Positions 256 through 39,295 of a stretch of 64,000 bases of DNA are shown in pieces. Numbering within the stretch: the stretch's first letter is position 1; each line of letters opens with the position of its first letter. A model generated the notes under the pieces. The model ran no database searches and was not told the DNA's origin. It saw nothing but the letters and a program-made list of their open reading frames with translations. The stretch comes from Hormiphora californensis. Its lineage: Eukaryota > Animalia > Ctenophora. The DNA is taken from positions 6,076,001 to 6,140,000 of the forward strand of contig CM035360.1 in the NCBI GenBank assembly GCA_020137815.1, given 5' to 3'. Both the position numbers and the translations under genes were made by a program.

Positions 256-3200
256 TTATTTTAGTTTAACCGTTATCGTGTGCCATGCATTGCTAAGGCA
301 GCCCCGTAGATTCCAGATATTTCGAACTTTTTCAGGTTGTCGGTTGTAATTTGCATCCACCGCACAACACGTCACCTTCACTTCATCACCAGGGTTCACT
401 CCCTCTGGTAGGGGCACTTCAATCTGAAATAGAGAGAGAGTTGTTATGTTCTAACCCTCCCTTTACATTTGTAAACACAGTCTAGCGGTCTAGCTAGGCA
501 AAGAGTTGGAGTGAACAATTACAAAGTAGGTAATATGAATATTTAATTGTTTGATAGGGGTAATTCCTGTGTGAAACCAATGTTATTGTTTGATCTATCC
601 CTTGTTTTATCTATTAAATTATCCAGAAACTTATGTGAGTGTGTTTGTATAAGAAACATAAACGTGGCCTATTATGGCGCCAGCACAAAAACCGGTAATG
701 CAATGGATAAACCGGATACAGCCGCATATGCAGGAAAATTATCCCACGGTATACGACTTCTGCGCGCTGGTCTCTATTCAGTGTGTATCGCGCGTTACGT
801 TTATGCGATGGAGTTTCAAACTTTTCAACACTACTTTAAACAAATTAATTTGAGATCTCTTCCAACCCGGCCCTCGCGGTCGGCTAGGTATAGTCATGAC
901 GAAAAGAACGAAGAAGAGAACGACGAAGATCACCGTTCCCCCTTCCTCGTCATCGGATTCATGCCCAACATGTAACATCCACTGGGACGATGAAGACGAC
1001 ATCCCCTGTGTGGCTTGTGACAATTGTAACACGTGGTTTCACATCAGATGTGTCGGTATCCCCGATCATTCTTTCTCAAACCTCTCTGAGTCCACCAAAT
1101 GGTACTGTGCTCGCTGTCTTAGAATCCCAGATATTGTACCCGCTACCCCCCTCAAGGCATCATGGGGAAAGCTGTCAGGTCCAGCTCTATCAAACTCTTT
1201 GTTCAGCATCCACTCCAAAATCTCTTCTTTCCGGCCAAACCTTTTCAAACTACCTTCTGGCAAAGCTGGTAAAATGTTTGTAAGTGAGGCTACGAGACTC
1301 GTCAGTGAATGGACTTCTTCTTCCCCCCTCGAGAGTGTTGCACTGACTGCACTACACCTCATGGGTCCTCTTCTTCTTCAAAACCCGGGGCGTAAATCAA
1401 AAACATCTGAGCAATCTGCTGCCCTTCTCCGTCGATTTCTCCTTTGGCAGACGGGAGATTTCGATGCTCTTTTGTCGGAATGCACTGTTATTCAATCCAG
1501 GTTACCCAAGTCCACCGCTGCCGACAATAGGAAAGGTTTTGTTCGGATGATGTTTATCGGGAGAGTAGGGGCTGCTATGAGACTTCTTAGTGCCACTCCA
1601 TCGGCTGCCCTAGAGATAACTCCAGCAGTGGTGAAAGACCTAAAGGAGAAACACCCAGAGGCAGCTCCTCTAAACCCTGACCACGTCATTTCTACCGACG
1701 TACCCCCTTCTTTTGAGCCTGCCATATTTTTCAATCTTAATGCTGACAGCATCAAACGAGCTGCAGCAGCCACGAAAGGCGGTGCTGGACCCAGTGGGAT
1801 GTCAGACCATCTATGGGCCCGTATGTTGTGCAGTAAAGCATTCGGAAAATCATCGGAGTCCCTTGCCCATGAAGTGGCTCTGATGACTAGAAGACTGTGT
1901 ACAGTGTACGTTGACCCTATCTCGCTGAGTGCACTACTATCGTGTAAACTGATCGCTCTAGACAAGAATCCGGGTGTCCGTCCTATTGGTGTAGGTGAGG
2001 TTCTACGTCGGATTATTGGCCGTTCTGTTTCCCAACACCTGAAACCAGAAATCATCCAAGCTGCTGGCCCTCTTCAACTCGCTGCTGGCCAACAGGGTGG
2101 AGCCGAAGCGGCGGTGCACTCAATGAGAGCTTTCTTTGACGATGAGAACGCAGAGGCGGTACTATTGGCTGATGCTCGTAATGCCTTCAATGTTCTGAAT
2201 CGTCGGAATGCATTGGTGAACATTCAGTATCTTTGTCCTGCTCTTTCTATCTTCGCCATAAACCTCTACCGCTCTCCTGTCCGTCTTTACCTCTCCGATG
2301 GCTCTTTCATCCTGTCATCTGAGGGAACCACCCAAGGCTGCAACATCGCCTCTCCCCTTTATTGTATAAGTCTTCGTCCTTTGGTGGATAAACTTTCAAC
2401 CACTTCCCCAAATCAAATTTTCTATGCTGACGATGGAGCAGCTGTTGGCTCCCTTCTCGGTGTTAGGGAATGGTGGGACTCCCTTGTTGCAAATGGTCCT
2501 GGCTATGGCTACTTTCCCCGTCCTGATAAATCAGTGTTGATCGTAAAACCCGAACATATGGAGGAGGCCAAAACGATTTTCATTGACACTGACGTCATCA
2601 TCAAATCAGACGGTCATCGCTATCTTGGGGCACCTTTAGGTACAACAGAATATCAGCAAATGTATATCTCCAAGAAAATTGAGGAATGGGTCTCAGATAT
2701 ACAGAACATCTCCAAAATTGCTGAAACAGAGCCTCACGCGGCTTATTCGGGTTACTGCATGGGTCTATCAAAACGTTGGCTTTTTCTCATGCGAACAACA
2801 CCCAACACAGCCGAGCTCTTTGCCCCCTTGGAATCAGCCATAACCTCCTTGTTGCTACCTTCTATCCTACGCAACCACTTCAGCCCATTACACCGAGAGC
2901 TCTTTTCCCTCCCATGCAGACAGGGTGGCCTTGGAATAAACAACCCCTGTGAGATCGCCGAACTTGAGCACCAACGATCTCTTGTCGCAACTGCACCGCT
3001 CTCTCAAATCATCACCGAACAGAAAACAAATATTGACGATGAGAGAGCAGTGCTAGTTGCCAAGAGATTGAAGGCTGCCAAACAGGAGGTCCTACACTCT
3101 AAGCTTGAAGTGCAGAAGAAACGCCTTGCCGAGGTTGCCGAGAAACTAACACCATCTCAACGGCGGCTTCATGAAGAGCTATGTAGGCGAGGTTCCTCAA

Positions 3201-6200
3201 CCTGGCTAACCACTCTACCTTTGGAGGAACACGGTTTTGTCCTGAACAAATTAGAGTTTAGAGACGCTCTGTCTCTGAGATATGACCTTCCTCTCCACGA
3301 ATTCCCCAACCACTGTGCATGTGGCAAACTAAACTCGATCGAACACAGTCTAAGCTGCTCTCGTGGAGGTTATGTCAACCTTAGACACAATCAGATGCGT
3401 GATCTCACTGCGAACCTCTTAGCTGAGGCTGGGCTTCCACTAACTGGAGAGGAGTTCAAATACCGTTCCGCCATCACCACCGAAGAGGCTCGATTAGATG
3501 TCTCAGCACGTGACCTCTGGTCTCCTATGGCAAAGCTATTCCTTGATTTCCGCGTCTTTAACTCTCGAGCCCCCACCAATCAATCTCTTCCTATTACCAA
3601 GGCTCTCAAGAAACACGAGGATGAGAAGAAGCGAGCATATGGTGAACGTGTCTTGCAGGTCGAAAAAAGTTCCTTCACACCGGTTGTCTTCTCGACATCA
3701 GGAATTATGGGCGATGAAGCAGACAAGTTCTATAAGAAGCTTGCTTCTAAACTTTCCGATAAAACGAAACAATCCTATCCCGACTCTATCCGGTACATTA
3801 GGCAACGATTATCATTCTGCCTCTTGAGGACACTTGTGATCAGTCTAAGGGGTCACCGTGGCACTAGCCCAAAACGTTTCAGCGACAGGAATGATATTAA
3901 CATTTTATACATGATTAAAAACAATTCGAATTAATTTATTATATCCATTTTATGTACAGATAACCTTGATTTCTATATCCATTTTACTAATTGAACCGGT
4001 ACCCCGGCTTTTGCAAAAAAATTTATGCGATGGAGAACCTTCTCTGAAACATATCAGAGCATTTGGGTTCGGTGATCCCTTCTCAACATTGACCCAGTTC
4101 ATTGTACAAGACAGTGCTGGCTTGGGTCCAAGAACGGCCCACCAATCCCCCTGTCAAGCTAGCACGTGCTAGAAGTGTGCCAAATCTGGTCAGTTACCAT
4201 GGCTACCAGGAGGTCTATATAAACCCGGTCACCACGTGCAGATTCTTTGTCCGTTTACTGCTATTGATTTGCTGTTGTTTTCACACCGCACGTCAAGTTC
4301 CGTAAACTATGATTTCTCCTGTAGAAATCTGTCTTCTCTTCGTCGGCATCCTCGTCCTTGTGGCGTTGTCTACGATACTTGCCGGCCTTCACGCTTTTGC
4401 GAGGAGGCTCAGTTCTCTGGAGGCGTCTGTTCAGGGTGTCTCTGTTGACCTTGCTTCTTCGGGAGCTCGCGTCACTGACAACTTGACAGTACTGAAGTGG
4501 GGAGTCATTCACGTGGCAGACCAGATCAAGAGACACCAGACAGACTGCAAGGCCCACAGTCTAGCTGCACTGGTGAAACTCCTAGAGGCACTCGTGCGTG
4601 AGCACGTAACGTCTCGGGAGCTAATCAGGAACGCTCAGGCGCAATCCTGGCTGGCAATTTCCCAGGTCGTAGACCGGGCAGCACGGAGGATAGCTGGCCA
4701 GTCAGGTAATTCCTCTACCGTTGAGGTCCAGACGGATGTCGAGCTCGGTCTTGTACCGGGCAAGGACGCACCCGTCCCCTCAGCGGATTCCGTTATCCTT
4801 CAGATGGAGTAAGCCTTTAGTGAGACGTGTGTGCTCCGGCTCTCCATCATGTCTGGTTCTCTTGGTCTCAATGCCCCGTGACTGACTATCCTGCTTCAAC
4901 CTCCAGAGATTCTACTGGCAAGTAGGCCAATTGACGAAGAAAGACCTTTTGCTGTTTATCAGCGGTTCCCGGGTCCTCTCACTCTGACTCCTATTCTGCC
5001 TGGCAAGCAGGATACGGGGAAGGCGTGAGGGGGTTCGGGTTCCCAGAGGGGGGAGTCACTGTGCAATTGCCAGGCGATATCTGACCTCCTTTATTGGAGG
5101 TCAGATAACGCCTAACAATTGCATAGTGACTCTTCGTACCAGCGATGGCCACACAAACTTCTTGTGTGATCATCGTCCCTCTGCCGTGAGCCTGGTTGGT
5201 TGATGGCTCCGTGGGTACGGTCAATCCCACAAAACCCTATATCCCAATAGATCCTTGTAGACCAATAGATCAAGTCAAGTCAAGTCAAGTCAAGTCAAGT
5301 CAAGTCAAGTCAAGTCAAGTCAAGTCAAGTCAAGTCAAGTCAAGTCAAGTCAAGTCAAGTCAAGTCAAGATTAAGTCAAATCAAGTCAAGTCAAGTCATG
5401 ACGATGAAACGGGAACAAGATAAAAACATATGGCATCAAAACCATTGTACTCGAAGATCAGAACATCAAAAGTCAAGGATACCAAAAGTCGAGAACATCA
5501 AAAGACAGCACAATACATCAAGACAGTACAGATAAAGACCACAAGACAGTGTGAACATTTACTTGTACATTTTGCTTCTTTTCGTTTATGAAAAAAGTGT
5601 CTGATATCTTTGTCTACTCTCTAAATTTAAAAGGTGGTTACTCTACTCTACAATAACTGGTCATCATGGACCACATCACCACCAGATTCTGGTCCTGGTT
5701 GTGTTTTGGATCACGTCCCAACTCACCTTCCAGATGGACCAGGACCAGGTCCTGTTTAGCGGAGACTCCTCGTCCTGTATTAGTTCTGCTGTGTGCCATG
5801 TGTCACCCCCATCCAGAGTTACATCCACCCTTATCACCTAGTGGAGGAGTTGTATGAGAGAGTTGTAAAAGATGTGGAATTGGGGAATCAGGAATGGGGA
5901 GATCACGACGGAAACTATCCTACTTTATGTTTATAGTCACTACCCGGTTCTCAGTGTGCAGCACTATAACAGTTGGTTTGGATGAACAGCGAACAATACA
6001 AGGGCTAACATTGTGTTATACACTATCTGTGCAGTGTTATAGTCCGTGGGGGTGGAATATGGATACAATGAGTTTTACCTTGGCGCCTGCCCCACTATAA
6101 GCGTATCCTCTAAGAGGTATCTTGTTCCCAGGTAACACCGTTACAGTATCTTCATTAAGCGGGTCACACACCTGGCAAGGGATCGATGCAGTATTAGGGA

Positions 6201-9026
6201 CACAGGATAAAGTAATATTGAAAACAAGAAAATTACATAGTACTAAAGAGGAACAATTGAGTCGTATACACGACACAAAAGATAGGGACAAAACTATCAC
6301 AAATCTGCTCAGTTTTACCATGCTATTAATTGGTTGATTCTGGATTGAAACTGCAGTTTTGTTGTCAAAATCCACGTTGTGCCAGTCAATACTCGGGTTG
6401 AACCCTGTAGCAGGAAGAGAGGTGTTGCTCAGAAAGAGAGGTGTCACAGTTCACAAACTGGAACAAGAAACATCACAATGAGGGAGAACTTTAAAAATAC
6501 CAATTTCTAAATTCAATATTTCTAGTACCTACCTTTGTAATCTCTCCGCTGCCAATGACTGTGACTCTCCTCGTGGCTGATAGTCATGTTGCCCACCCAT
6601 TTGACGTTCCTTGCACCCACTACACCAGGTGCCACTAATCGCACTGGATATCCGTGATCCCGGGGCAGAGTCTCACCTGAAATTGGGGGGTGTCAGGCCA
6701 TTGACCACTGTAATTCTCACTCAATGCTCTGACCACTGTAATTCTCACTCAATGCTCTAACCACTGTTCTCAGTTCTCACTCAATACTCTAACCACTGAC
6801 CACTGTAATTCTCACTCAATGCTCTGACAGAGGTGGGTTCTTGGAAGAGGAGGAGAAGTGTAGATTAACAAGGAGGGTGACACATGTCTACCAATAGCAG
6901 GTGGCCGGTGGGTAGAGGAATTTGAATGGAATGATGGTTGGCTATGAATTATAATTGGATAATGTTTTTTGGAAGTTATCTACTCGTAGATTTAGAATTG
7001 CTAACCTACCGTTCATGGTCAGCGCTAAGATAACATCTTGTCGTGGATCCATTGCTTTTTCTATCAGTATTGAAGCACCGTAGGGTGTTCCATCAGGACC
7101 AAAATCTAGACCTGGAGAGTTAGGTTTTAGTGACTTTATCTTGTTACATGAAGATCTAGGTATTATTGAGTACATCATGTTTGTTGTTAGAACAAAGTCT
7201 CCCAGATGTCCAACAAATGTACATATAACTGCACTGTGAGCAGCTTCTAACGATCTCGGGCGGTAGGAGGAGGAAGGAAAATGGGAATAAGATAGAGAGA
7301 AGAGTTATACGGTTTACTTTACACAATTCGATAATGCGTTTGTTTCTGTTATTCTGCTGCTGCTTCATCGGTGGTTCAGGGATTTCCGCCTCCCGACGTA
7401 AGCGGATTCTAAACAATCCTATAGATAACTTATCGGGAACTATGACAAGCACACCACCTAAGACCAGAGCAAACTCTTCACCTACCATTGCACCGGAAAC
7501 CACCCCAGATAATAGTGTCGTTACTAATTTTCAATACAAAGGCCAACGAAATGCACATCCATGCACATCTGATTCAAAATCATGGAGGTGTAAGTTTGAA
7601 AGCTGTAAGAATCAACTGGAAGCTCACCAAAGTAACTCAACAATAGGGTCAAATGCAACCTCAACACCTCCATTTTCAACGGAGCAGCAAAGCACAAACT
7701 GGAGCAGCTATGAGGTACAAAACAAATCACAAAGCAACTGCAGCAGCTGTACTTCATTGAAGGTCCTGGTGGGTATTCTGCTTGTTATTGTCGTTACCCT
7801 TACAATCGGTATAATTGTACTACTACGACTTCAGATCATCAACCTACAAACCAATCAGTCCCAGTTGGAAGTCCATAACACAGTCCAGCAATCGGAGGGG
7901 TGCTATGAAACACTACCTATCCCAGCAGCAGGAGTCGGAGAGCAGCATTCCAATCTACAAGTGGGCCCTACTACTAGTACAGCAGCAGCTGACCAAGAGG
8001 AGGACTGCTATGCTACCTTACCAGAAGGTTGTTACGAGTGTCTACCTGGTCTACCTGGGCTACAGCTGGATGTGAAGGAAGATTGCTATGATACATTGAA
8101 CTTCTCCAACAATTCCAGACCACCCCTGGTTACCATAGCAACCACCCAGGTTACCATAGCAGCAAGACCACCCCCATCCCAACGTGACGTTTCGCCCTGG
8201 TGTGGTGGAGGAGGAGGAGTGAGTCACAGAGAGTCTCTAAACAAGGCACCTGGAGGCTCTGGAGAGAACATGGAGGGGTACTCAACAGGAAGACACCTTT
8301 ACAATCACTGCCCAGAGGATACCGCATGTTATGAGATGGGATTAGTTATTGAGAACCCGTGTACAGAGAGTGAAATAATCGAAATAGCAAGTGGAGTAGA
8401 GAGGGTTCACGCTGGTGAAGAGGAGGAGGAGGAGGAGGGTCATTATGAAGTGCCAGACATGGAGGATTAGTTGGCATACGAAGGTCGAAGGAGAACTTGA
8501 CAATTGAGGAATTTGAAAAATTTTAAAGAACAGTAACTAACAGTGTTAAACAGTGAACTGTAGTAGGATTAGAAGTTTTTGGATCACTATGTATATATTT
8601 TTCATTATCTTCAAGAAGTATGACAGTATAACAGACCTATAACTACCTATGATATAACCTGAGAAAGGTATTCAACTCACCATCCACCCAAACATGTTTT
8701 GCCTCTGGGTATTTCTCCTCGCTCCACCCGTAGTGTTTCAGAACATCACACAGCCGGGGTCCAGACCACACGGCATTACTAATAGCTGCCCCTCCCCAGT
8801 TCATACCCCGTACTGGTTTGTGCTGAGGATGGGATCAATTAGGGGAATGGGGGTCAGTGGGGATGAGGATCAAGGGGGATTACACAACTAACCTGTAACA
8901 TGTCTGCTCGTCTGTTTCCAGCACACTGAATGGAGACAGTAACGGTGTGTTGTTCAAACTTAGTTTTTAGATCTTCCAAGGATAAGGTCACTCCATCCTC
9001 TCCCATTCCCATGCCATCGATCTGGT

Positions 9027-9093
<67 letters not shown>

Positions 9094-9115
9094 GAAGAGA
9101 GAGAGAGAGAGGAAT

Positions 9116-9149
<34 letters not shown>

Positions 9150-9217
9150 CGAGAGATGCTATCTCGATAGAGCTCTATCTCTCGCTCGCGATCGCCTTCG
9201 CTCTCTCTCTCTTACTC

Positions 9218-9251
<34 letters not shown>

Positions 9252-9253
9252 AT

Positions 9254-9335
<82 letters not shown>

Positions 9336-9395
9336 CTCTCTCTCTCTCTCATCTCTCTCTGCTCTTTTCTCTCTCCTCTCTCTCTCCTCTCTCTA

Positions 9396-9431
<36 letters not shown>

Positions 9432-11754
9432 TCTCCTGCTCTCTCCATGGAGGTTTAGCTCATGATGGGGGTCATTATCTCCTTACCGTTCCAGAGCCCA
9501 CGTGAGTATGTGAGATACATGGAAAACAAATAAGGAAAGTCAAAGAACTCCATTTTAAATGGATCCAGCCCGTGCCCATGCCCACGTGGAAAACAGATAA
9601 CTCTAAGTTCAGGAAGCAGGACGTTATATCAAGCTATATTTTGACAGTTGTTATTGACTCTTTATCAGAATGTTTTGTTTCGTGGTTGCGATTTTATTAT
9701 TAGCTGTAACAGGTGAGAATGCTTTACACTTTACAGATATTTCTGGTGAATAAACCGATTAAAATTTTCAAGTTTTTGTACAATTTGTGTTGCCATTTCA
9801 GCATGGAGCCCAGTTGAACGCGATATCAAAATACCATTTGATCTGGAGAGCACCCCTCTTCAAATCAAAACTGACTCTCTTACCGGGAGTAAAGAAAAGA
9901 TAAGAGTGGGGACATACACGGTGGATGGACACTTCATTGGAGCAGTGGAAGTGTGGTTTCAAAGTTCTTTGAAATACAAAATTGCAGGTTCCTGTATGAA
10001 ATGGTATGTCAGTTTTCCAATACAGCTATCAGGAGAAGTGGACAAGACGTGGACATTTCGCAAGACGAACACCACTCTTAGTATTGATTGCAACAGGGTG
10101 GAGGTTCTGAACTACCAGTTCAGTGACAGTGATGATAGTAGGTGTGTACCAAGCTGGGGAGGAGATGTAGTGGAATTGATAAAATTTAGTGGGGATCATG
10201 ACTCTGCATCTAACACTTATCGGGCAAAACCAGTAGGTAAGAAAATTATTGATTGTTACAAGAATATCACTAAACTTTCAAATTATTATTCAATTCCTTT
10301 CTCAGCGTGCCCAGGGTTTACCGTGGACGGATCAGTGCAAAGAAGTTGGAACGATACAGATCCAGGACAGACGGTGACAATCAACTGTCAAGAGAGCAGC
10401 TTTGAGCGGACGTGTACTGACAACGGAGAGTGGAGCACTGACATTCCAGCTTGCGAGAAACAAGGTAAGTTGGGAGCTTAGCGCCATAGTTACCCATACT
10501 CGGGTGGTATGTGGTTTGCTCAGCGTGTGGCTAAGTGACCCAAAAAAACAAGGTAAGTCAAATCGGGTAAAATATTGAGTTCAAAAACTGGAGCAATTTT
10601 AAAATGTAATTGCAATGTTTCGTCTGAAATTGCTACAAAAGACAGGGACCTTTTGTAGCGATACGATCGATACATATACAAAACACCCAACTCTACAAAT
10701 TACCTACTTATTTTTATCCGACCCTACCTGAAGTTCATAGGTCTCAGGGTCGATATTTGGAACAGGGTGGTGGTGCCTGACGTAGAACAACTCACTGAAA
10801 AATGTACTTTGTTGGAGCTGTCTGAAAACTAATTTTGAACGTGTATTGTATTTTCATAGATTTCCAGATGGTAAAGTCCGTTTCAAGCGACTTGACCCCT
10901 AATTCTTGGAATTTGGCGCATTGCGTGTGTATTTACAAAGGGGAAATCCTGAATTTCCAGGAATCTCAGGTCAAGTCGTTTGAAACGCACTTTAGTCGGT
11001 CTACATTCAACATATAGGTGAACTTACTTGGGGGTAATAAAATTATCAGCGAGAATGTTGAGGGGAGGTTCAGCGTTGAATGGTCGGGCATTGTTAACTG
11101 AAAAAGCAGGATGCCTGGTCGGTTCATCTTTGTATGGATCATTGGGATCTTCTGCAACCACGTCTGCCACAGCTAGATTTCCAATCCTGTACTTTTCTAG
11201 CAGATCAAATACCTGGAGTTGGAATCAAGTTAAAAAAAGATTCGTTATATTATGTTCTAACATTTGTACTGGATACGGGGAAACAGCTCAGGGTCGAGCA
11301 AGGTAAAGAAAGAGTCGTAAAACAAAAATAAAATATTACTTACGTAAGGTTTCTTATGGACAGCATACAGGGCCCAAAATGGTTCGATGGGTCCCCCAGC
11401 ACCGATAAGCAACTTTTCTCCCCCTGGGTGTTCTGCAATGAACTCTGTGACGTCATAAACACCCTCCTTGAAGGAAACCCAAACTCTACTGCCAGGAGTT
11501 GCCCCATCTCGCTCCATCACATCCTTCGCTGTGTAGGTTGGTAGGTCAACCCGGGGTTGCCCCGCTTTTTCCTCTTCCTCGGACAGGAATACAGCGGCTG
11601 CGGCAGCTGCAGCGAGTTTTACTGGATATCTTGGTTGAGAGTTGTGTTCTTCATACCGGTTGTCATGACGACAGGACGCTCCCCAGCTGGCTCGGGAAGT
11701 TGATAGCCGTCTTACTGTTGATCGACTTAACAGTCTCAAATGGTTTTGGTACAT
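256..11754 (-). CDS. SUOX: Sulfite oxidase (mitochondrial), complete multi-exon gene (~11 exons)
   Basis: Exon 1 (11754-11344): transit peptide plus cytochrome b5 domain ([25 protein letters not shown]). Later exons read PFNAEPP..NFITP (~11212-11028), [10 protein letters not shown] (~10760), IQCAGNRR with the Mo-ligand Cys (~8920), [13 protein letters not shown] (~8822-8681), PYGASI (~7080), [24 protein letters not shown] (~6677-6533), [20 protein letters not shown] (~5838-5727). Last exon [20 protein letters not shown] (423-256). GT-AG junctions. Confidence 0.95.
811..854 (+). other. Spliced-leader (SL) exon copy 1, forming the 5' end of the CRE element
   Basis: GAGTTTCAAACTTTTCAACACTACTTTAAACAAATTAATTTGAG; identical to 59969-60012 and 43/44 identical to revcomp 16238-16281. 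Matches the ctenophore SL as I recall it. Not followed by GT, so not an SL RNA gene. Confidence 0.88.
896..3934 (+). CDS. CRE ORF: PHD finger - reverse transcriptase - CCHC knuckle - restriction-like endonuclease
   Basis: C4HC3 PHD ([22 protein letters not shown]). RT motifs [36 protein letters not shown] followed by [40 protein letters not shown]. Confidence 0.93.
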   Translation: MTKRTKKRTTKITVPPSSSSDSCPTCNIHWDDEDDIPCVACDNCNTWFHIRCVGIPDHSFSNLSESTKWYCARCLRIPDIVPATPLKASWGKLSGPALSNSLFSIHSKISSFRPNLFKLPSGKAGKMFVSEATRLVSEWTSSSPLESVALTALHLMGPLLLQNPGRKSKTSEQSAALLRRFLLWQTGDFDALLSECTVIQSRLPKSTAADNRKGFVRMMFIGRVGAAMRLLSATPSAALEITPAVVKDLKEKHPEAAPLNPDHVISTDVPPSFEPAIFFNLNADSIKRAAAATKGGAGPSGMSDHLWARMLCSKAFGKSSESLAHEVALMTRRLCTVYVDPISLSALLSCKLIALDKNPGVRPIGVGEVLRRIIGRSVSQHLKPEIIQAAGPLQLAAGQQGGAEAAVHSMRAFFDDENAEAVLLADARNAFNVLNRRNALVNIQYLCPALSIFAINLYRSPVRLYLSDGSFILSSEGTTQGCNIASPLYCISLRPLVDKLSTTSPNQIFYADDGAAVGSLLGVREWWDSLVANGPGYGYFPRPDKSVLIVKPEHMEEAKTIFIDTDVIIKSDGHRYLGAPLGTTEYQQMYISKKIEEWVSDIQNISKIAETEPHAAYSGYCMGLSKRWLFLMRTTPNTAELFAPLESAITSLLLPSILRNHFSPLHRELFSLPCRQGGLGINNPCEIAELEHQRSLVATAPLSQIITEQKTNIDDERAVLVAKRLKAAKQEVLHSKLEVQKKRLAEVAEKLTPSQRRLHEELCRRGSSTWLTTLPLEEHGFVLNKLEFRDALSLRYDLPLHEFPNHCACGKLNSIEHSLSCSRGGYVNLRHNQMRDLTANLLAEAGLPLTGEEFKYRSAITTEEARLDVSARDLWSPMAKLFLDFRVFNSRAPTNQSLPITKALKKHEDEKKRAYGERVLQVEKSSFTPVVFSTSGIMGDEADKFYKKLASKLSDKTKQSYPDSIRYIRQRLSFCLLRTLVISLRGHRGTSPKRFSDRNDINILYMIKNNSN
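4309..4812 (+). CDS. Orphan 167-aa ORF with N-terminal hydrophobic helix, in the sequence interrupted by the CRE element
   Basis: ATG-initiated; hydrophobic residues ~6-30; TATATAAA at ~4216; no recognisable family. Confidence 0.3.
   Translation: MISPVEICLLFVGILVLVALSTILAGLHAFARRLSSLEASVQGVSVDLASSGARVTDNLTVLKWGVIHVADQIKRHQTDCKAHSLAALVKLLEALVREHVTSRELIRNAQAQSWLAISQVVDRAARRIAGQSGNSSTVEVQTDVELGLVPGKDAPVPSADSVILQME
5270..5397. repeat. (TCAAG)n pentanucleotide microsatellite, possibly a LINE 3' tail
   Basis: About 25 near-perfect copies. Confidence 0.95.
6703..6827. repeat. ~28-bp intronic minisatellite
   Basis: GACCACTGTAATTCTCACTCAATGCTCT about 4 times, imperfect. Confidence 0.85.
7334..8470 (+). 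CDS. Intronless type I membrane protein with multiple cytoplasmic Tyr motifs, nested antisense in a SUOX intron
   Basis: Signal peptide [14 protein letters not shown]; S/T/N-rich ectodomain; [23 protein letters not shown]; tail with CYETL, CYATL, CYECL, CYDTL, CYEM, HYEV. Lies between SUOX exons at ~7111 and ~8681. Confidence 0.75.
   Translation: MRLFLLFCCCFIGGSGISASRRKRILNNPIDNLSGTMTSTPPKTRANSSPTIAPETTPDNSVVTNFQYKGQRNAHPCTSDSKSWRCKFESCKNQLEAHQSNSTIGSNATSTPPFSTEQQSTNWSSYEVQNKSQSNCSSCTSLKVLVGILLVIVVTLTIGIIVLLRLQIINLQTNQSQLEVHNTVQQSEGCYETLPIPAAGVGEQHSNLQVGPTTSTAAADQEEDCYATLPEGCYECLPGLPGLQLDVKEDCYDTLNFSNNSRPPLVTIATTQVTIAARPPPSQRDVSPWCGGGGGVSHRESLNKAPGGSGENMEGYSTGRHLYNHCPEDTACYEMGLVIENPCTESEIIEIASGVERVHAGEEEEEEEGHYEVPDMED
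9029..9445. repeat. (GA)n tract followed directly by (CT)n tract
   Basis: About 125 bp GA-rich, then about 260 bp CT-rich. Confidence 0.9.
9670..10464 (+). CDS. Secreted/surface protein: signal peptide, ctenophore-type extracellular domain, sushi/CCP-like module; 3' end unresolved; nested in a SUOX intron
   Basis: Exon 9670-9712 [14 protein letters not shown]|gtgag. Exon from ~9802 [40 protein letters not shown]..gtaag (~10237). Exon ~10306-10464 [25 protein letters not shown]|gtaag. Confidence 0.7.
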
Positions 11755-14147: not shown

Positions 14148-14192
14148 ATATGAACTTTACAATTTATATTGAGTTAATGTAGAAAAATATGA

Positions 14193-14342
14193 GCATACTC
14201 GGAAATTTTCAGGTCGAGCATATTCGTCATTCAGGTCACGCCCACCAATCACAGCTCAGAACGTGCGGATGATCAGCACGTTCTGAGCTGTGATTGGTGG
14301 GCGTGACCTGAATGTGCTCGACCTGAACATTTCCGAGTATGC
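14193..14342. mobile_element. 150-bp palindromic MITE
   Basis: GCATACTCGGAAA..TTTCCGAGTATGC; near-perfect hairpin over its length. Confidence 0.8.
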
Positions 14343-14462
14343 ACAACAGCGGGTTGACCAATATCAATAGCAAAGTACATTCATGTTATTGCACTTTTCT
14401 TCTTATTTCAAAAAGTTGCTTTCGATTGTTAAAATGTTTCCAAAATAATAATAATAATAATA

Positions 14463-15096
14463 ACTAGTAAACCCGCTCGCCCTACGGGCGAATGTCGGGG
14501 ATGGTCATACAGTAAACTAAGCAAATAGTGTAGTTTCATTTGAAATTTTTTAAATCAGTAAATTTATCAGGTAAATTAACCACAGGGATTCTTTCGACAG
14601 AAAATTCACGGGTCCTCTTTTGCCAGGTCCTGTTGTATTTTATGAAGGAGCACATTTACAAAATACTTTCACGTATTACTGTCATTTCTTATTAGTGCCA
14701 TTGATACTTTGTTATTACGTGTGTTGACAACATTTTTTGAATTTAAATAATCACCTCTTTTGTAGGATTCTATCACGTAGTCTATAGGTGTCAGCGCCAG
14801 TTTGGGACATATAGCTCCTCCAAACTCGCTGGCGATTGTGTTGAAGTTGAGTAGTCATGTTCACGAAACGTGGTGAACAGATCAAATCGAGCAAACGATC
14901 AATCACACAACCGGCAGAGAGATGAATCAAGGATGCACGTGCAGTTTAAGGCTCAAGCTGGCAGGTTGCCAAGGTCCCTTTAGGGACAACACGTGCAAAA
15001 GGCCATTTCCAGGAATTTTTGCGTGGCACTATTTGCCATATTTGGTTAAAAAAACGGGACATGGGATTTCCCTATTTGCTTTAATAATAGTATGAT
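14463..15096 (+). mobile_element. Probable Helentron-associated non-autonomous element (HINE-like)
   Basis: Starts ACTAG..CCCG..CGGG short hairpin and ends GCTTTAATAATAGTATGAT. Splits the 3' end of the SL-ORF1 element from its (ATT)n tail. Confidence 0.45.
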
Positions 15097-15224
15097 AGTA
15101 ACAGTTTATATCCCGCACTGACACAGTTTGTATACAGACAACTCGTTTTCCTTAATTTGAAAGGGACTGCAGTAGACTGCCTGCTCCTAGCACGGTTCTC
15201 TGATAACGGTGAGTTAGTGGGGAA

Positions 15225-16181
15225 CTATCCCACTTGGATAACATTATTACGGATGAAGTAGCAGCCGTCAGGATCTTCTGATCGTATCCGCTTCAAAGTG
15301 GACCTTAGAGCTTTTTGCTCTTTCAGTTCAGAGGGCGTAAGATCCGGAGAGAGATAAACAGCCGAAAATTGTTTGGAATCTTTGAGGTTTCGTGCCTTTC
15401 TGAGGAGTGCGAGGAGAGTCGCTCTCTTCTCCAGGGATACTAAGAGCGGTCTAGGGCGCTTCTCATTTCTTTCGCCGATGCGTTTCATCGTAGTCACTTT
15501 CGGTTTCTCTTTTAATTCCTCAAAAAGTTCGTCTAAAGTAGTTTTAGCTACTCTATCGGTTGTTTCTGGGAGACCAAACACAACCATGTTCTTCTCTCTT
15601 CCAGGCTGTAGGACGGGAGTAGGATGATTCACTGGTAGTGATTTTCCCACTTTGGGGGAGGTTGCAGCACAATTCTGTGCTAGCACAGTAGAGTAGGCTT
15701 TCACCTTCTGCACCGATGCTGTCACTGTACTGAGTTGTTGGTTCTGGTGGTTGATGACCGTTTGCTGAAGCTCGATCACGCTAACCCGATGGCGGTCAAG
15801 TTCTTCTTTACATTCACGCAGCTGTTTCTCGAGGTTTTCTGCACTGATAACCGTTTCAAAATTGTTCATTGTTGCTCGGGCAAGTTTCATACTGGAGAGA
15901 AAAATACGCGAAGTAGCCTCGATTATTTCACTCGTAGTTCGGTCCTTGAGACAATGTCTAAAGTACGAACCCCAGTGCTTGCCAGGCGAAGCTATGCTGT
16001 CGTTGGTTAACATTGAATCGGGTGCAGCTCGAATCGATCTATAACATTGAGTAAACTCATCTGGTGTGATGCTCGTCGTGTTGTCCGAATTCAACAGGTA
16101 AACTTCAGAAACAAACTCATTTACTGTCTCTTCTAATCGTTTTATCACAGGGTTATCGCCCTCGTACTTCGCTTCCGACAT
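15225..16181 (-). CDS. CR1/L2-type ORF1 protein (coiled coil + RRM-like + CTD)
   Basis: Coiled coil, then KNMVVFGLPE..KRIG..RPRPLLVSL..LK..VYLSPDLT..YFIRN, the typical LINE ORF1 C-terminal signature. Confidence 0.8.
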   Translation of the reverse strand: MSEAKYEGDNPVIKRLEETVNEFVSEVYLLNSDNTTSITPDEFTQCYRSIRAAPDSMLTNDSIASPGKHWGSYFRHCLKDRTTSEIIEATSRIFLSSMKLARATMNNFETVISAENLEKQLRECKEELDRHRVSVIELQQTVINHQNQQLSTVTASVQKVKAYSTVLAQNCAATSPKVGKSLPVNHPTPVLQPGREKNMVVFGLPETTDRVAKTTLDELFEELKEKPKVTTMKRIGERNEKRPRPLLVSLEKRATLLALLRKARNLKDSKQFSAVYLSPDLTPSELKEQKALRSTLKRIRSEDPDGCYFIRNNVIQVG

Positions 16182-16237
16182 TATCAGCGTTTCGTTTTTC
16201 TGCCCTTCGGGGCTGTTACATCGGATTCATCTTCCTG

Positions 16238-16281
16238 CTCAAATTAATTTGTTTAAAGTAGTGTTGAAAAGTTTGAAAATC
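16238..16281 (-). other. SL exon copy 2
   Basis: Revcomp GATTTTCAAACTTTTCAACACTACTTTAAACAAATTAATTTGAG; one mismatch to the other two copies. Confidence 0.85.
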
Positions 16282-17006
16282 ACCGTCCGGGGCCTGGAGC
16301 GGCAGCCCCGGTGAGGGGTTTCGGGGGCGAAACCCCCAATAAACAGGGTCCAGGGGCCTAGCCCCGGCGGGGTGTAGCCTGTAGGGGGCGCCCCTGCAAG
16401 CAGGGTCCAGACTTCAGGGGCTGCAAGCCGCTCCGTCATGTTGATTCCTGTTGATTATTGGCCGCCCACAGTCGCGAATCGTGAAAAAAGCAAACAATGT
16501 TAGCGGACTTAGGCAATGCTTTAAGCGGGCGACCAATATAATATGACGGAGCACTCAGCACCAGTAAGTAGTAACCACAGTATTAACTAACAGCGGTGCT
16601 CCGTCTGGCGTCTGCCTTCTAACAACAAAATTTGCCGCACACTTTGGCCTATGCTACAGGCCCTAAAGAAGCCGTGGAAAACGCGCGCACTTGGGGTCTG
16701 CAGCGCATGCCAACCGCACACTTTTCAAGTTTTTTATCCTAGCTGAGGAGATAAATCCCGCTCGAACGCCGCGCAGTTATTTGCGCGTTCTTGTTTTGCG
16801 CGTGACATTTTTTGCCAATCTGTCTCCCAATTAAAATCTCTCTTCCTACATCCATATTCTGTTCATAATTGATATGCCATTGACAGATTATTAAATCCTG
16901 GTAAGTTAAATAAGACGATCCAATTAAAAGTGTTGAAAATAAGTTAAATGTGTTGTTCAGATCCTGTTAATAAATTAAAACCGGGTTAAAATAGACTGTC
17001 CGTGTC

Positions 17007-27811: not shown

Positions 27812-29368
27812 TTATTCAACAAGTGATCGAAAAGACTTTGAGTCCTGGAAAATATCACTTCTCACTGCTAAACACAAATTTACTTTTGAAATGTCAGGCC
27901 CAGCGACATTAAAAATTTTGGAGAAAGTGGACTTGGCTGACTCGACAAGAGTTTCCCGACTCTCATCATTCGTTCCATAAAAAAAGTTTTTCCCTCTCAC
28001 ATCACAATACACATAATTAAATAACCAGTAGCATATGTAAGCCATAGGAAGGACTGGGGCAAATTTTCCCTTGAAGCAGTATCGATAGAAATCCTCAGAA
28101 GTTCCAGAGCCAAGCCTCTCAGGGCAATAAAGATCTGTACGGTGAAGCTCAGGATGCTGTACTCGATTTCGAATCAGCCGAATTATATCACTAAGGTTAC
28201 TATCGCTAGCCAGTTTAAACCCATAAAGTTGTTCTGGAAGTAGGCCTAGAGGCTCTTGTTTTTTCTTTGAGCCTTTCTTTTTTTTCGGTGGTACAGAAAA
28301 CTGTTTCCAGTATTGTTCAACTTGTGCTTTCAATGCTCCTCCAATGAATGGAGGGGTTGTGAGTAAAGTATTGCACTCGTTGAGAAAGGTCATCTTTTTT
28401 TCAATACTCCAAAAGAGTGGGTGATTAAGAATCTGCGGGGCGGAAATACGCTTTTCAGCAGCTGTTACAACACAAACGTCAATCAACAAGTCGGCAAACA
28501 ATGTGTCAGCGTGTAAATTTTTCTCCGAAATAAAAGATACCCTCAATGATTTGGCTATGTTTCCGTTGCGATGATGATCAACCCCAAATGGATGCTCAGC
28601 TTTAACAGATGTCCACTCAGAACTTCGTTGAAATGTCATTATGAATTGTGCCAAACAACCGAAAGCAAACACGTCTCCAGAACACCCGGCTTTCTTTGAG
28701 CCATTTAATGTTTCTGGTGGCATCCAACCGTGTGATCCAACTCTTTGTTGACTTACAGTAACACACTTCCTGTAGGGATCAACTTCTCGAGACAGGCCAA
28801 AATCAGATATTACGGGAATGAATTTGTTAAGCTGAGGGTTGTATTTAACCAAGATATTCGAGGGTTTCAAATCCCGGTGGACAACTCCTTCCCGGTGCAT
28901 GTAGTCCATTCCATTTGCAATCTCCAATAACATTTCCTTTTTACTTGACCAATTTCCATCCAAGTCGTTTTTTGGATACGGGGTCCCAAAAACAGTTGTT
29001 CCATTCGATAGAAGAGTGACCAAAGATCCAAGACAAAGCTCAAGGGCAATTTTCTCGAAATCATCGTCGAAGTCGTAGAAATAATACCGTATGATATTTT
29101 CGTGCTTTAGTTTCAAAAGGGCACTAATCTGGTGATTCACATTCTTCTTTAGCTCCTCATCATCACTCTGGATCCTTTTCACAGCAACAATCTTTTCACT
29201 TGGACCTTGGACGAACAGCCCGAAGTAAACGATTCCTTCACTGCCTTTATCAATACGAAAAGCCGGTTTAGCTATGAGCTTGATTGGACTCCCAAACTTG
29301 CCGTAGAGATCCTGGAAATTTGCATTCCCTTTCAAGAATCTGCGAGCCACAATGTTTTCGTATGACAT
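27812..29368 (-). CDS. IRE1/RNase L-like kinase + KEN ribonuclease, copy 1 (intronless, no sensor or TM domain seen)
   Basis: VAVKRI, HENIIRYY, IALELC, HRDLKPSN, ISDFGLS, GSHGWMPPE, DVFAFGC, HPFG, HPLFWS; KEN motif DIIRLIRNRVQH. Likely start MSYENI at 29368; the ORF extension upstream is (CT)n. Confidence 0.88.
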   Translation of the reverse strand: MSYENIVARRFLKGNANFQDLYGKFGSPIKLIAKPAFRIDKGSEGIVYFGLFVQGPSEKIVAVKRIQSDDEELKKNVNHQISALLKLKHENIIRYYFYDFDDDFEKIALELCLGSLVTLLSNGTTVFGTPYPKNDLDGNWSSKKEMLLEIANGMDYMHREGVVHRDLKPSNILVKYNPQLNKFIPVISDFGLSREVDPYRKCVTVSQQRVGSHGWMPPETLNGSKKAGCSGDVFAFGCLAQFIMTFQRSSEWTSVKAEHPFGVDHHRNGNIAKSLRVSFISEKNLHADTLFADLLIDVCVVTAAEKRISAPQILNHPLFWSIEKKMTFLNECNTLLTTPPFIGGALKAQVEQYWKQFSVPPKKKKGSKKKQEPLGLLPEQLYGFKLASDSNLSDIIRLIRNRVQHPELHRTDLYCPERLGSGTSEDFYRYCFKGKFAPVLPMAYICYWLFNYVYCDVRGKNFFYGTNDESRETLVESAKSTFSKIFNVAGPDISKVNLCLAVRSDIFQDSKSFRSLVE

Positions 29369-29464
29369 GGCTAAACAGAGGATAACAGTGGGGTTTACAG
29401 TGGGAGAACAATATAGGGAATAGGGATTTTGATTGCGGGGTGAGTCGGGAGAGAGAGAGAGAGA

Positions 29465-29536
<72 letters not shown>

Positions 29537-30034
29537 AAGAGAGAGAGAGAGAGAAAAAATCAGAGAGGGAAAGATAATGATGAAACCCGGAGAGGGCAAA
29601 GGTGTCAGTTTGACAACAAAAGTGGTCACCTTTCCAGTCAACTAATTTCTGATTTTTCCATAATATTTACAATTTACATTGTCAAAAAATATTGTACTCT
29701 AAAAAAACCCAAACGGTTCGGGTACTTCAATAAATCGTGCTTAGATTATGGGTTTATAATTTACGAGAGAGCAAATTTTACTCTCAAACCCACACCTCTG
29801 ACCTCCAAACCCACACCTCTGACCAGAACACTGTCACCACACCCATGGCCATACAATTGCGATTACAGATACCCCAAGTTTCAAGTAAGCGTAAGAGGTG
29901 TAAAAAATTGTTAAAGAGGGCTACCCGCTGAGTGGTCCATCCGGCAAAACCAGGTCGATCAACGTAAACTTTTGCGGCTTACCGTATCTTTCAGTCATTT
30001 CCATAGCAAAAAACTACCGGTAGTACAGACTTGA

Positions 30035-31657
30035 TTATTCTGTGTGTGATGAGCTTGGCCCCAATCCCATTGCAGCCGATTCAGCACTCATTTGCTTAGT
30101 AGATCGGAGCATATCACTCATGGATTTCCTCATACTTTCATTAGTCATCGAAAACGAAACAAAGCTGAACAAATTCTTAAACCAAACACTTGAAATAAGA
30201 AGCCCAGCAAGCTTGAAAATCTTAGTAAAAGTAGCGTTAGCTGATTCAATAAGAGTTTCATGTCCGTACTTGTAAATGTCCCCCTCGCAGTATAACTTAT
30301 CATGAGAGTAGCATATGTAAGCCATAGGAAGGACTGGGGCGAATTTTCCGTTGAAGCAGTATCGATAGAAATCCTCAGACGTTCCAGAGCCAAGCCTCTC
30401 AGGGCAATAAAGATCAGTACGGTGAAGCTCAGGGTGTTGAGCTTCATTAGTAATTAACATAATTATTTCGCTAAGTCGACTGTCACTAGTCAGTTGAAAC
30501 CCATAAAGTGATTCCGGGACAGGCTGTTGCTTCTTTTTCGACCTTTTGCCTTTTTTCTTCGGAATAGACAACTGCTTCCAGTAGTTTTCAACTTCTCCAG
30601 CTCCCCTCACCCCTCTATTTAAGGAGCTTTGAGGTGTTGTGAGTGAAGTATTGCACTCTTTAAGGAAGGTCATCATTTTTTCAGCAGACCAAAACAAAGG
30701 ATGCTTCAAAATCTGTTGAGCAGAAATTCGCTTTTCAGCAGATTTATATACACAAACGTCAATCAACAAGTCAGCAAACAATGTGTCGGCGTGTAAATTT
30801 TTCTCCGAAATAAAAGATACTCTCAAAGCCCTTGTGATATTTCCGTTCCGTTCATGGTCAACTCCAAATGGATGCTCAGCTTTAACAGATGTCCATTCAG
30901 AACTTCGTTGGAATGTCATTATGAATTGTGCCAAACAACCGAAAGCAAACACGTCTCCAGAACACCCGGCTTTCTTTGAACCATTTAATGTTTCTGGTGG
31001 CATCCATCCGTGTGATCCTACTCGTTGTTGACTTACAGTAATACACTTCCTAGAAGGATCAATTTCTCGAGACAGGCCAAAATCAGATATTACGGGAATG
31101 AACTTCTCAATCTGATGGTTGTATTTAACCAAGATGTTGGAGGGCTTCAAATCCCTGTGGACAACTCCTTCCCGGTGCATGTAGTCCAGTCCATTAGCAA
31201 TTTCCAATAACATTTCCTTTTTACTTGACCAGTTTTCATCTACGTTGTTACCTGGATATGGGCCCCCAAAAACGGTTGTACCATTCGACAGAAGAGTGAC
31301 CAAAGATCCAAGACACAGCTCAAGGGCAATTTTCTCAAAATCATCATCATAGTCGTAAAAGTAATACCGTATGATATTTTCGTGCTTTAGTTTCAAAAGG
31401 GCACTAATCTGGCGATAAACATTCTTTTTTAGCTCATCATCATCACTCTGGATCCTTTTGATAGCCACAATCTTTTCACTTGGACCTTGGACGAACAGCC
31501 CGAAGTAGACTAATCCTTCGCTGCCTTTACCAATTCGGAAGGCCGGTTTAGCCTTGAGCTTGATCGGACTCCCATCACCAAACTTGCCGTAGAGTGTCTG
31601 GAAATCTGCATTGTTTTTCAGAAAACCTTGAGCCACACTATCCTCATAAATTGACAT
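30035..31657 (-). CDS. IRE1/RNase L-like kinase + KEN, copy 2
   Basis: Close paralog of copy 1; KEN motif altered to EIIMLITNEAQH. Start MSIYED at 31657. Confidence 0.88.
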   Translation of the reverse strand: MSIYEDSVAQGFLKNNADFQTLYGKFGDGSPIKLKAKPAFRIGKGSEGLVYFGLFVQGPSEKIVAIKRIQSDDDELKKNVYRQISALLKLKHENIIRYYFYDYDDDFEKIALELCLGSLVTLLSNGTTVFGGPYPGNNVDENWSSKKEMLLEIANGLDYMHREGVVHRDLKPSNILVKYNHQIEKFIPVISDFGLSREIDPSRKCITVSQQRVGSHGWMPPETLNGSKKAGCSGDVFAFGCLAQFIMTFQRSSEWTSVKAEHPFGVDHERNGNITRALRVSFISEKNLHADTLFADLLIDVCVYKSAEKRISAQQILKHPLFWSAEKMMTFLKECNTSLTTPQSSLNRGVRGAGEVENYWKQLSIPKKKGKRSKKKQQPVPESLYGFQLTSDSRLSEIIMLITNEAQHPELHRTDLYCPERLGSGTSEDFYRYCFNGKFAPVLPMAYICYSHDKLYCEGDIYKYGHETLIESANATFTKIFKLAGLLISSVWFKNLFSFVSFSMTNESMRKSMSDMLRSTKQMSAESAAMGLGPSSSHTE

Positions 31658-32358
31658 GGCTTTAAGAAAATAAGGAGAGTGGACAGAAACAGAATTGGAG
31701 AAGATTGTTTTAGCAGAGGATAGCTCTCCAATCTCCGAGCATTGTCTTTTTATGCATTTATCACTGAGATATTTCCCCCGCCCGGGTAAAGGCCGAAGGC
31801 CTTCACCTGGATACCTTTTGCAAAAAGACATAGGGTTTTAGAAATCTGTAACGGATATAGTGACTATGTGTAGCAAGACCATCACAGATGTCCCGTTTCA
31901 GTTGCGAGGGGCAACGTGTAGCAACTAGAGCCATACACACAACAAAAAACGTCTCCTTCATAAACCACTTCATTGACACGTTTTCAGAAAATGTGTGGTG
32001 CGCAATGCCACAATGTGGTGCACAGTTTAGCGCTACTAAAACACAATGATTTATTCTATACTGTTTGAGTGATATATCAATGATCGGAAATGTCAGCCCG
32101 CTTTCACATTAGATGGTTATGAAAATAAGGATTGGCAGGGAAACATAGCATTATGAAACATAATGCAGGTATTTTTGTTGATACAACGGGGCAAAGAAAA
32201 CAACCGCATGCAATTAAGTTTTACATAATTATATCTTTGCCTCTTATTATCTCTTATAAAATAAGAATAATTTTGAAGAAATAATATCAAGTAATTTTCT
32301 CCGCCCGTATGCGTTTTGCAGAAAGGCATAGGGGTGTAGAAATCTTTAACGGATATAC

Positions 32359-33379
32359 TAGTTAGGGAATTTTAGCATATTTTTCAGCAAAATTTTTAAC
32401 AAGCTAATTTCTTCACCAATAGATCCGGATAGGTGTCTAGTATCACCAAAAAAAAGTACACGATAATCGGAAGTGCGCACACGCGCTGAGCGCGCAAGAA
32501 GTAAACACATGTAAATACATGTATTTCTAGCCTGGCACGAAAACCCAAAAACCATCTTAGGAGACGAGTAGAGAAAAAATCAAGGGCACTAGATTGTGTA
32601 GCGTCCTCGCATTAGTGGGGGTAGGTGCTGAAATTAAGTCTCTATCTCATCTGGTTAATTAGATAATTGGATAATTAGATATGCGCATAACCGTATTTTG
32701 GCTATATGGCTATAGCCACTTAGGAATGGTTTAGAGACTTTTCAATGGTGCCATTTTGTTCAGAAAAAAATTTCAATCTAAGAGTTGTGGAAAAATTTAG
32801 AGCCTATCTCTTACCGTTTTGGCGTAATTCGCAGTCAAAGAAGGCCAATTAACTGATTTTTTGGCATTTTCGGCTGATTTGGCATACTTTGACCGCAAAT
32901 AACGCCAAAACGGTAAGAGATAGGCTCTAAATTTTTCCACAACTCTTAGATTGAAATTTTTTTCTGAACAAAATGGCACCAATGAAAAGTCTCTAAACCA
33001 TTCCTAAGTGGCTATAGCCATATAGCCAAAAAACGGTTATGCGCATATCTAATTATCCAATTATCTAATTAACCAGATGAGATAGAGACTTAATTCCAGC
33101 ACCTACCCCCACTAATGGGAGGACGCTACACAATCTAGTGCCCTTGATTTTTTCTCTACTCGTCTCCTAAGATGGTTTTTGGGTTTTCGTGCCAGGCTAG
33201 AAATACATGTATTTACATGTGTTTACTTCTTGCGCGCTCAGCGTGTGTGCGCACTTCCGATTATCGTGTACTTTTTTTTGGTGATACTAGACACCTATCC
33301 GGACCTATTGGTGAAGAAATTAGCTTGTTAAAAATTTTGCTGAAAACTTGGCCCTTTTTTTACTAAAATTCCCTTACTA
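32359..33379. mobile_element. ~1-kb foldback (near-perfect palindromic) element
   Basis: Arms of ~490 bp are reverse complements, centred near 32865; the ORF track shows mirror ORFs at 32358-32555 and 33172-33366. Confidence 0.88.
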
Positions 33380-34569: not shown

Positions 34570-34724
34570 CAGTCGGACCCCGATTTACGGGGATGCTCGG
34601 GGAAAGGGTTTTACCCGGTAAATCGGGGTGCCCGGTATATCGGGGTCAAATACCGTTAATTTCCTATATCGGGGAATTTTATCCTCCCGGTAAATCGGGG
34701 TTCCGGTAAATCGGGGTCCGACTG
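34570..34724. mobile_element. Tc1/pogo-type MITE, family copy 2
   Basis: TA-CAGTCGGACCCCGATTTAC..GTAAATCGGGGTCCGACTG-TA. Confidence 0.85.
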
Positions 34725-39145: not shown

Positions 39146-39295
39146 TTACCACCTAGACCACAGCTACCATACTGCAAAGTAATCAGAATATGATCCCACC
39201 TGTTCTCACATTTCGGGCGAGACTGCAACCGCTAATTGATAGTTTCATAGTAGGGATCGTGAGCATAAAATATGTCAAACACATTTTCACCAGTA

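Follow-up and report, generated by a model that had tools for sequence, protein, structure and literature searches.

A spliced-leader-headed, ORF1-only LINE-derived element, probably non-autonomous, in the ctenophore Hormiphora californensis

The window, by which we mean the whole stretch of DNA analysed here, comprises 64,000 nucleotides of Hormiphora californensis (contig CM035360.1, positions 6,076,001 to 6,140,000) and is intron-containing, repeat-rich animal DNA; all coordinates below are counted within it. At 14443..16281 on the minus strand, a single unit, element A, is flanked by a 7TM gene on one side and an RRP5-like gene on the other, with no head-to-tail array; without an insertion that it carries, it measures 1205 nt. 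The stop codon of the RRP5-like gene (S1 and weak RRP5 domains; the last exon was located) is about 730 nt upstream of element A on the same strand, and this gene is a possible source of read-through transcription into the element. The stretch immediately upstream of element A, 16282–16440, is GC-rich and resembles a low-copy repeat.

Read in its own direction, element A begins with a copy of the ctenophore spliced leader (16238..16281), which agrees with the leader copy at 811–854 of the window at 43 of 44 bases and is not followed by a GT donor. The left copy (16276..16280) of a likely 5-bp target-site duplication, ATTTT, overlaps the start of the leader. There follow a 56-nt 5' UTR (16182..16237), common to element B, to L001 and, by translation, to P0045, and an intact, stop-free open reading frame of 318 aa, ORF1 (15225..16181). 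The 3' region of 129 nt (15096..15224) consists of a decayed ORF2 stub and the first bases of the tail. It is followed by a non-autonomous Helitron-like insertion of 632 bp (14464..15095), a later arrival, and by the (TAT)n / (ATT)n tail (14443..14463), which shares its final bases with the right copy of the likely duplication (14446–14442, ATTTT on this side of the element too). The tail contains (ATT)6 at 14444–14461, and just two runs of six units occur in the whole window. The leader head, the intact ORF1 (16181–15225) and the spacing of about 130 nt between the ORF1 stop and the tail, ignoring the insertion, are all as the initial annotation had described them.

The model of the ORF1 product, built on a 19-row alignment, predicts a long helix at residues 83–174 and then an alpha/beta part like an RRM and CTD at about 195–317, with a pLDDT of 60 overall and of 74–88 across the last 120 residues. 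In a Foldseek search with this model, the best 11 rows were all human LINE-1 ORF1p (E from 3e-6 to 2.4e-4), and the TM score against the isolated central domain of human LINE-1 ORF1p was 0.68. Pfam assigned no ORF1 family to the ORF1 of element A, and the sequence searches of Pfam and PDB returned coiled-coil noise alone. A complete LINE on two metagenome contigs, L004/L005, retrieved with the alignment used for the model, with an ORF1, then an APE-RT ORF2, then a (CTA)n tail, has an ORF1 that aligns with residues 192–312 at 26–27%. This two-ORF LINE comes from another organism, has an intact ORF2 frame of 1048 codons, and served as a reference only; we take it to be CR1-type, a label that comes from motifs rather than from an RT tree. 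On the predicted fold, we regard the ORF of element A as a LINE ORF1 that encodes an ORF1p-like protein.

Relatives of this ORF1 in the protein collection number 27, at 40–98% identity, and include Pleurobrachia bachei gene models; the cluster at 90% adjoining element A holds 11 proteins. Few members of the best three Atlas clusters have a record, and the phylum most often given for these is Ctenophora; the ORF1 alignment found no relatives in the viral and prokaryote collections. The Nei–Gojobori dN/dS ratio, which the initial annotation had named as a check on ORF1, is 0.21 for element A and L001 and 0.16 for L002 and L003, the two unsaturated pairs, while four deeper pairs give 0.12–0.20 with dS close to saturation. 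Among variants between copies, 14 of 26 ORF1 letters are synonymous against 24% expected (p = 0.001; 40 of 82 variant rows listed). ORF1 is under purifying selection.

Behind the ORF1 stop, the frame remains open in register with ORF1 and ends in a decayed N-terminal motif of a CR1-type endonuclease, which we take to be the start of such an enzyme. Compared with the ORF2 start of L004, this stub scores 34, a value reached by one of 3042 tiled background windows. A matrix of CR1-type APE starts was also built: 35 proteins gave 28 segments kept, 27 of them distinct (7 proteins were without the motif by rule, and 3 segments are misplaced). With it, the stub ranks top of 127,840 six-frame positions at 16.3 bits, the runner-up having 7.8, although it stays below 24 of the 27 training segments (28–52 bits; the other three are the misplaced ones). 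Judged by its sequence, the ORF2 stub of element A is real but decayed, with about 42 codons. The same matrix found no stub in element B, L002 or L003. A profile of 34 CR1-type ORF2 proteins, run against all six reading frames of the window, gave no match at E ≤ 1, and the 42-aa stub, a weak query, matched none of the longer proteins and nothing in the sequence searches of Pfam and PDB.

The ORF2-like register extends to the last codons before the tail, with no clear room for the 3' UTR of a parent LINE; the tail appears to have been joined inside ORF2. The initial annotation's simple-repeat tail without ORF2 therefore stands as far as any RT or APE coding remnant is concerned, of which there is none, but not as a clean absence of ORF2, since some 42 decayed codons of its start persist in frame. 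A tail sitting directly on the stub would fit a truncation fixed in a master copy better than new cuts of the RNA by trans-splicing. No stable 3' stem-loop precedes any of the four tails examined (z from −0.4 to +1.1 against shuffles).

Among public sequencing runs, 20 of the 24 listed contain part of the stretch of element A, nine of them with at least half of its words; four runs were aligned to 14350–16450, of which three (X1, X2, X3) are DNA runs. The summed contig depth in X1 is 3,100–10,300 on ORF1 against 6–10 in the outermost flank bins, a contrast that is not a copy number; X2 and X3 repeat it, and in the three DNA runs the ORF1 depth is tens to a thousand times that of single flank contigs. 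Element A is accordingly not single-copy, and we estimate that it likely has tens to hundreds of copies. From position 15095, other copies run into the tail and then other flanks in 12 contigs (seven in X1, three in X3 and two in X4; three of four runs compared at this junction). None of 21 loose ends among the matches listed (21 of 78) reads through into ORF2 or APE: the 3' ends seen there are the tail, and a majority of copies continuing into ORF2, which would have spoken against the initial annotation, was not seen. Three long contigs, partly read, leave element A at 15133, 15134 and 15151 (X3 record 20; X17 records 11 and 12), and those leaving at 15133 and 15134 could be ORF2 continuations, so a minority of copies may still bear ORF2.

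All four elements with readable 3' DNA (A, B, L002 and L003) lack ORF2 and terminate in a simple repeat no more than about 230 nt past the stop; the sequence of L001 stops at the ORF1 stop and is uninformative on the 3' end. The 10 full-length members of the nearest cluster lie on contigs of 1133–1382 nt (mean 1304, sd 80), against a unit of 1205 nt. Short contigs as proof of ORF2 loss were set aside as not discriminating, a control of 28 full-length distant ORF1s having a median of 1607 nt, with 19 of 28 below 2 kb. The depth on ORF1 falls 3-fold from the 3' to the 5' end; 5' truncation would fit this fall, which is nevertheless uninformative on that point and was not used as evidence, because relatives match the conserved C-terminal half better. 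The proposal of a non-autonomous family is supported by repeated copies that share the truncated structure and the same tail base, and by the selection on ORF1.

The insertion at 15095–14464 begins with TC, ends with CTAG, sits between A and T and has a subterminal 3' hairpin, which are the Helitron hallmarks given in PMC4778049. The predicted hairpin has z = −1.9 and was equalled by 7 of 200 shuffles. Depth dips at the insertion junction in X1, X3 and X17, and the insertion also occurs with other flanks: two X17 contigs exit at 15096 and 15099 into other DNA. We considered whether it belongs to the family of element A, with a depth equal to that of ORF1; the contigs that bypass it at 15095 and the dips at its junction rule this out. 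The insertion is an independent, non-autonomous Helitron-like repeat family that arrived later than element A, and the initial annotation's view of it as a later insertion is confirmed by the copies that go from 15095 directly into the tail.

The flanks suggest that the site itself varies. In X1 and X3, the match of flank contigs to the window ends exactly at 16276. One 321-nt contig of X3 matches the upstream flank to this base and has 128 letters left over, and the depth of the downstream flank bin in X3, 464.8, equals that of the 321-nt contig to the decimal; one X3 record alone overruns the ends of the stretch. By arithmetic, an empty allele would leave the window exactly at 16276, and 92 letters would suffice to span the far flank. 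These lengths and the depth make it likely that the site is empty in X3, with a duplication no longer than 5 bp; the listing of joints for this site covers all but 14437–14472 and a single joint in repeats. In X2 the junction is filled (record 16). Element A is thus likely a young and polymorphic insertion. In the RNA contigs of X5, most of ORF1 and part of the 632-bp insertion are covered; in one contig the leader is reduced to its final 14 bases, preceded by 43 other letters, and it should be noted that such contigs cannot show ends or strand.

Leader copies of 44 nt occur three times in the window, at 811–854 (+), 16281–16238 (−) and 59969–60012 (+). The two plus-strand copies are identical, while that of element A differs at one base; the copy at 811–854 equals, when compared by eye, the ctenophore leader printed in PMC8527503. 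A GT donor follows none of the three window leaders and neither of the two locus leaders, and the window has no Rfam match. The leader of element A was accordingly rejected as an SL RNA gene, there being no GT donor behind it. The leader pattern had no match in the viral and prokaryote collections.

The third copy heads element B (59969–61288, +), which has the leader at 44 of 44 bases, the 5' UTR core of element A, an intact ORF1 of 339 aa and a (TTGAAC)3 tail. Including the leader, the 5' ends of A and B are 83% identical over 110 nt. The ORF1 of B shares only 30% with that of A over the C-terminal 210 aa and stands far from it on the tree, its nearest relative being P0145 at 74%; the same 5' UTR on so distant an ORF suggests 5' UTR swapping. 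Tails differ as well: besides (TAT)n, three are found among the relatives of element A, namely (TTGAAC)n in B, (TTTGTA)n in L002 and (TTGATA)n in L003, the latter two being ORF1-only elements with unrelated 3' UTRs.

The copy at 811–854 heads a full-length element at 811–4030 (+), which has one intact ORF of 1012 aa with matches to PHD and, weakly, to RVT_1, and a perfect 14-bp duplication on both sides. We take it, on its motifs, to be CRE-like, and regard it as an intact autonomous element with the leader as its 5' start. As an RT donor for element A it was rejected by inference, its 14-bp duplication and A-rich end being unlike those of A. A 3' fragment at 59345–59762 (+), about 200 nt upstream of the leader of B, shares 46% over 113 aa with the 1012-aa element and is related to it.

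A second leader complicates the picture. The head of L002 is a different 44-nt leader-like sequence that has both ends in common with the published leader; on its sequence, it is a candidate ctenophore SL RNA variant, and it may be the leader of another species rather than a within-species variant. By translation, it also precedes the ORF in P0045, P0025, P0071 and P0117. In P0045, which is 80% identical to A, it joins the A-type 5' UTR at the very base where A and L001 have the published leader. The published leader is found on A, L001, B and the CRE-like element, and the second one on L002 and the distant P0025, P0071 and P0117; when the C-terminal 205 residues are placed on a tree, the second leader appears at three separate places and the published one on A, L001 and the distant B. 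Two leaders on the same 5' UTR at the same base suggest that the leader is renewed from the host. Whichever origin the second leader has, this suggests that the head tracks the host and not the descent of the element.

Renewal meets a difficulty at the splice acceptor. The usual acceptor rule is YAG, and GAG is a poor acceptor. The leader ends in GAG, and YAG|G sites 3–33 nt further on, present in all five leader-headed elements, are evidently unused. No tandem relict leaders were found in the five heads examined.

Taken together, these data lead us to propose, with a probability of roughly 0.75, that element A is a copy of a repeated, leader-headed, ORF1-only LINE-derived family that is likely non-autonomous, its leader-spliced RNA being copied by the RT of another LINE, likely of CR1 type. 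In the ancestor, ORF2 would have been lost from about codon 42 on, and the (TAT)n tail would have come onto the stub. The 5' end of the RNA would be made by SL trans-splicing, so that full-length copies bear the current leader of the host. The simplest route of leader renewal would be transcription that reads through from the flanks, with splicing repeated at the terminal AG of the old leader, which would explain both the exact exchange of leaders and the lack of tandem relicts. After translation, the element's own ORF1p would coat its RNA, and we propose that the ORF1 frame is kept because of this; the APE-RT of the partner would then prime on the simple-repeat tail. The Helitron would have inserted afterwards into the tail of copy A. 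The weakest step is the re-expression of a leader-headed copy, since GAG is a poor acceptor and the better ones downstream are unused. This step might instead rely on a small number of masters with promoters, or on a promoter within the leader, which has been proposed for dinoflagellates (PMC6050394). Neither the profile search of the window nor the stub query against longer proteins found an autonomous partner, and the source of the RT is assumed.

It is also conceivable, but in our judgement unlikely, that we are looking at one half of an obligate two-part LINE, the bipartite option of the initial annotation, in which ORF1-only and ORF2-only elements, separately leader-capped, supply ORF1p and RT to each other. 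The ORF1 clade has radiated deeply (28 rows, one starred clade), ORF2 was not seen in any of its members, none of 44 full-length members is on a contig longer than 4 kb, none of 11 longer matches scanned has an RT or endonuclease family, and selection on ORF1 persists across the depth of the clade. The only fusion-sized near match in the best 150 profile matches, P0119 (671 aa), was discarded as an ORF1–ORF2 fusion, being a gene model joined to host PSF3. SL trans-splicing could, moreover, provide an ATG-less ORF2 with its own 5' end. The short contigs lose force, however, with the distant-ORF1 control, which is also mostly on short contigs, and an ORF1p acting in cis accounts for the selection without mutual dependence. 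No ORF2-only APE-RT element was seen with the window profile or the stub query, and none that is leader-headed lies within the window; the stub in A implies that the ancestor was an ordinary two-ORF element, and known ORF1-only families coexist with two-ORF partners (PMC5786205). We hold equally doubtful a wider form of this idea, in which pleurobrachiid comb jellies would harbour an old radiation of promoterless ORF1-only elements, with the leader renewed at each cycle, 3' tails exchanged to match different RT donors, and ORF1p supplied to leader-capped ORF2-only partners, that is, a LINE split by trans-splicing; such a radiation would explain most of the unexplained ctenophore leader copies, which run to hundreds.

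Another explanation would dispose of the acceptor problem altogether: a small number of fixed source loci, either a domesticated ORF1 gene or promoter-bearing masters with an outron, would have given rise to the leader-headed copies as processed pseudogenes without offspring of their own, which simply mark trans-spliced mRNA, as dinoflagellate retrogenes do. It agrees with the lack of an evident promoter in the leader-headed copies, and a leader on a retrocopy is to be expected when about 30% of Hydra TE reads bear one (PMC12220107). Set against this are the many subfamilies at 40–97% identity with differing 3' UTRs and four tails, and the synonymous skew of variants among copies, which points to several source lineages under selection; among the loose ends listed (24 of 609), none showed an upstream outron form. 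We therefore think this origin quite improbable. The presence of the stub and the absence of a separate LINE 3' UTR could also be accounted for by a single accident, a complete LINE having lost its ORF2 at this locus through internal priming or a Helitron-linked deletion. In three runs, 12 contigs enter the tail at an identical base but have other flanks, and this largely refutes such an accident; in addition, the stub is decayed while ORF1 is intact, and L002, L003 and B independently follow the same plan, so a one-off loss is very improbable indeed.

The preferred reading, a non-autonomous family that keeps its ORF1, has known counterparts. ORF1-present non-autonomous LINEs have been described as HAL1 (L1 clade, mammals), HeT-A (Jockey, Drosophila) and Ag-Sponge (CR1, Anopheles) (PMC5786205, PMC5753468). 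Like them, element A encodes ORF1p only, is repeated and has kept its frame, and would need a foreign RT; by clade, Ag-Sponge is the nearest to it. Unlike them, it begins with a host leader, shows no promoter region of its own, and switches the type of leader at a fixed base; its tail sits directly on the ORF2 stub, with no separate LINE 3' UTR seen, and its subfamilies differ in microsatellite tails. It is also neither telomeric, lying between host genes, nor provided with poly(A). HAL1 proper (L1 clade, poly(A)) was excluded by the (TAT)n tail and by a stub that resembles CR1-type APE starts, and HeT-A (telomeric head-to-tail arrays) by the single unit between the 7TM and RRP5-like genes. 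We conclude that element A works like Ag-Sponge or HAL1 and bears the tested marks of ORF1-present non-autonomous LINEs.

Leader-tagged copies are known as well. As in element A, the genomic copies of DinoSL-tagged dinoflagellate retrogenes start with a trans-spliced leader that marks an RNA intermediate, and both raise the question of whether the leader copy serves as a promoter (PMC6050394); the body of element A, in contrast, is a selfish ORF1 element and not a host gene, and its kin show no tandem relict leaders in five heads. In Hydra, TE RNAs likewise use host SL trans-splicing, the leaders being reported on reads (PMC12220107), whereas here a leader-headed, ORF1-only family is present in the genome.

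Retrotransposons that target SL genes, CRE/SLACS in trypanosomes and NeSL in nematodes, also have a leader abutting the element, as in A. In the present case, however, neither an SL intron nor a GT donor is present, copies have varying flanks, and the likely duplication comes from the flank; the leader therefore belongs to what was inserted and is not the target.

What was known already, then, are ORF1-only LINEs in three clades (PMC5786205), leader-tagged retrocopies in dinoflagellates (PMC6050394) and leader-bearing TE reads in Hydra (PMC12220107). We found no published description of leader-headed ORF1-only LINEs in ctenophores; the scope of this search was listings of the literature apart from most subscription journals, Repbase and the Hormiphora supplement, the last of which may bear on the point. 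Within the same scope, the combination of an exchanged leader head, a tail on an ORF2 stub and a multi-tail radiation was not found in print. A young, likely polymorphic family whose ORF1 is under selection allows a test of why half-elements retain ORF1. That the leader switches at one fixed position suggests that this retrotransposon leaves the making of its 5' end to the host, a counterpart to what R2-like elements achieve with ribozymes (ribozymes: PMC5786205).

Genome counts of 718 leader copies in Hormiphora and 491 in Mnemiopsis have been treated as leader loci (PMC8527503). In this window, at a density about seven times the Hormiphora average, all three leader copies head retroelements and none is an SL RNA gene; leader-headed retroelements could explain the published copies in both genomes.

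The rest of the window is rich in other repeats. A Penelope-like element with RT-like frames and a weak GIY-YIG match, GC-rich and strand-skewed, lies at 36915–39145 (+), and a (TCAAG)26 array at 5270–5398, with no ORF1 or ORF2 remnant nearby, is possibly the tail of another element. Near-perfect palindromic elements, MITE-like or foldback-like, are found at 14190–14345, 32381–33346, 55960–56752, 56773–57126, 57526–58308, 58600–58827 and 58973–59194; one of the palindromic elements in the window measures 966 bp at 96%. The satellite or foldback at 44100–47500 is rich in AGCGCT and contains a direct duplication of 856 bp at 99%. A cluster at 27812–39857 (−) comprises three or four kinase paralogs, and their post-kinase tail, which has no Pfam match, presumably resembles the KEN domain of IRE1/RNase L.
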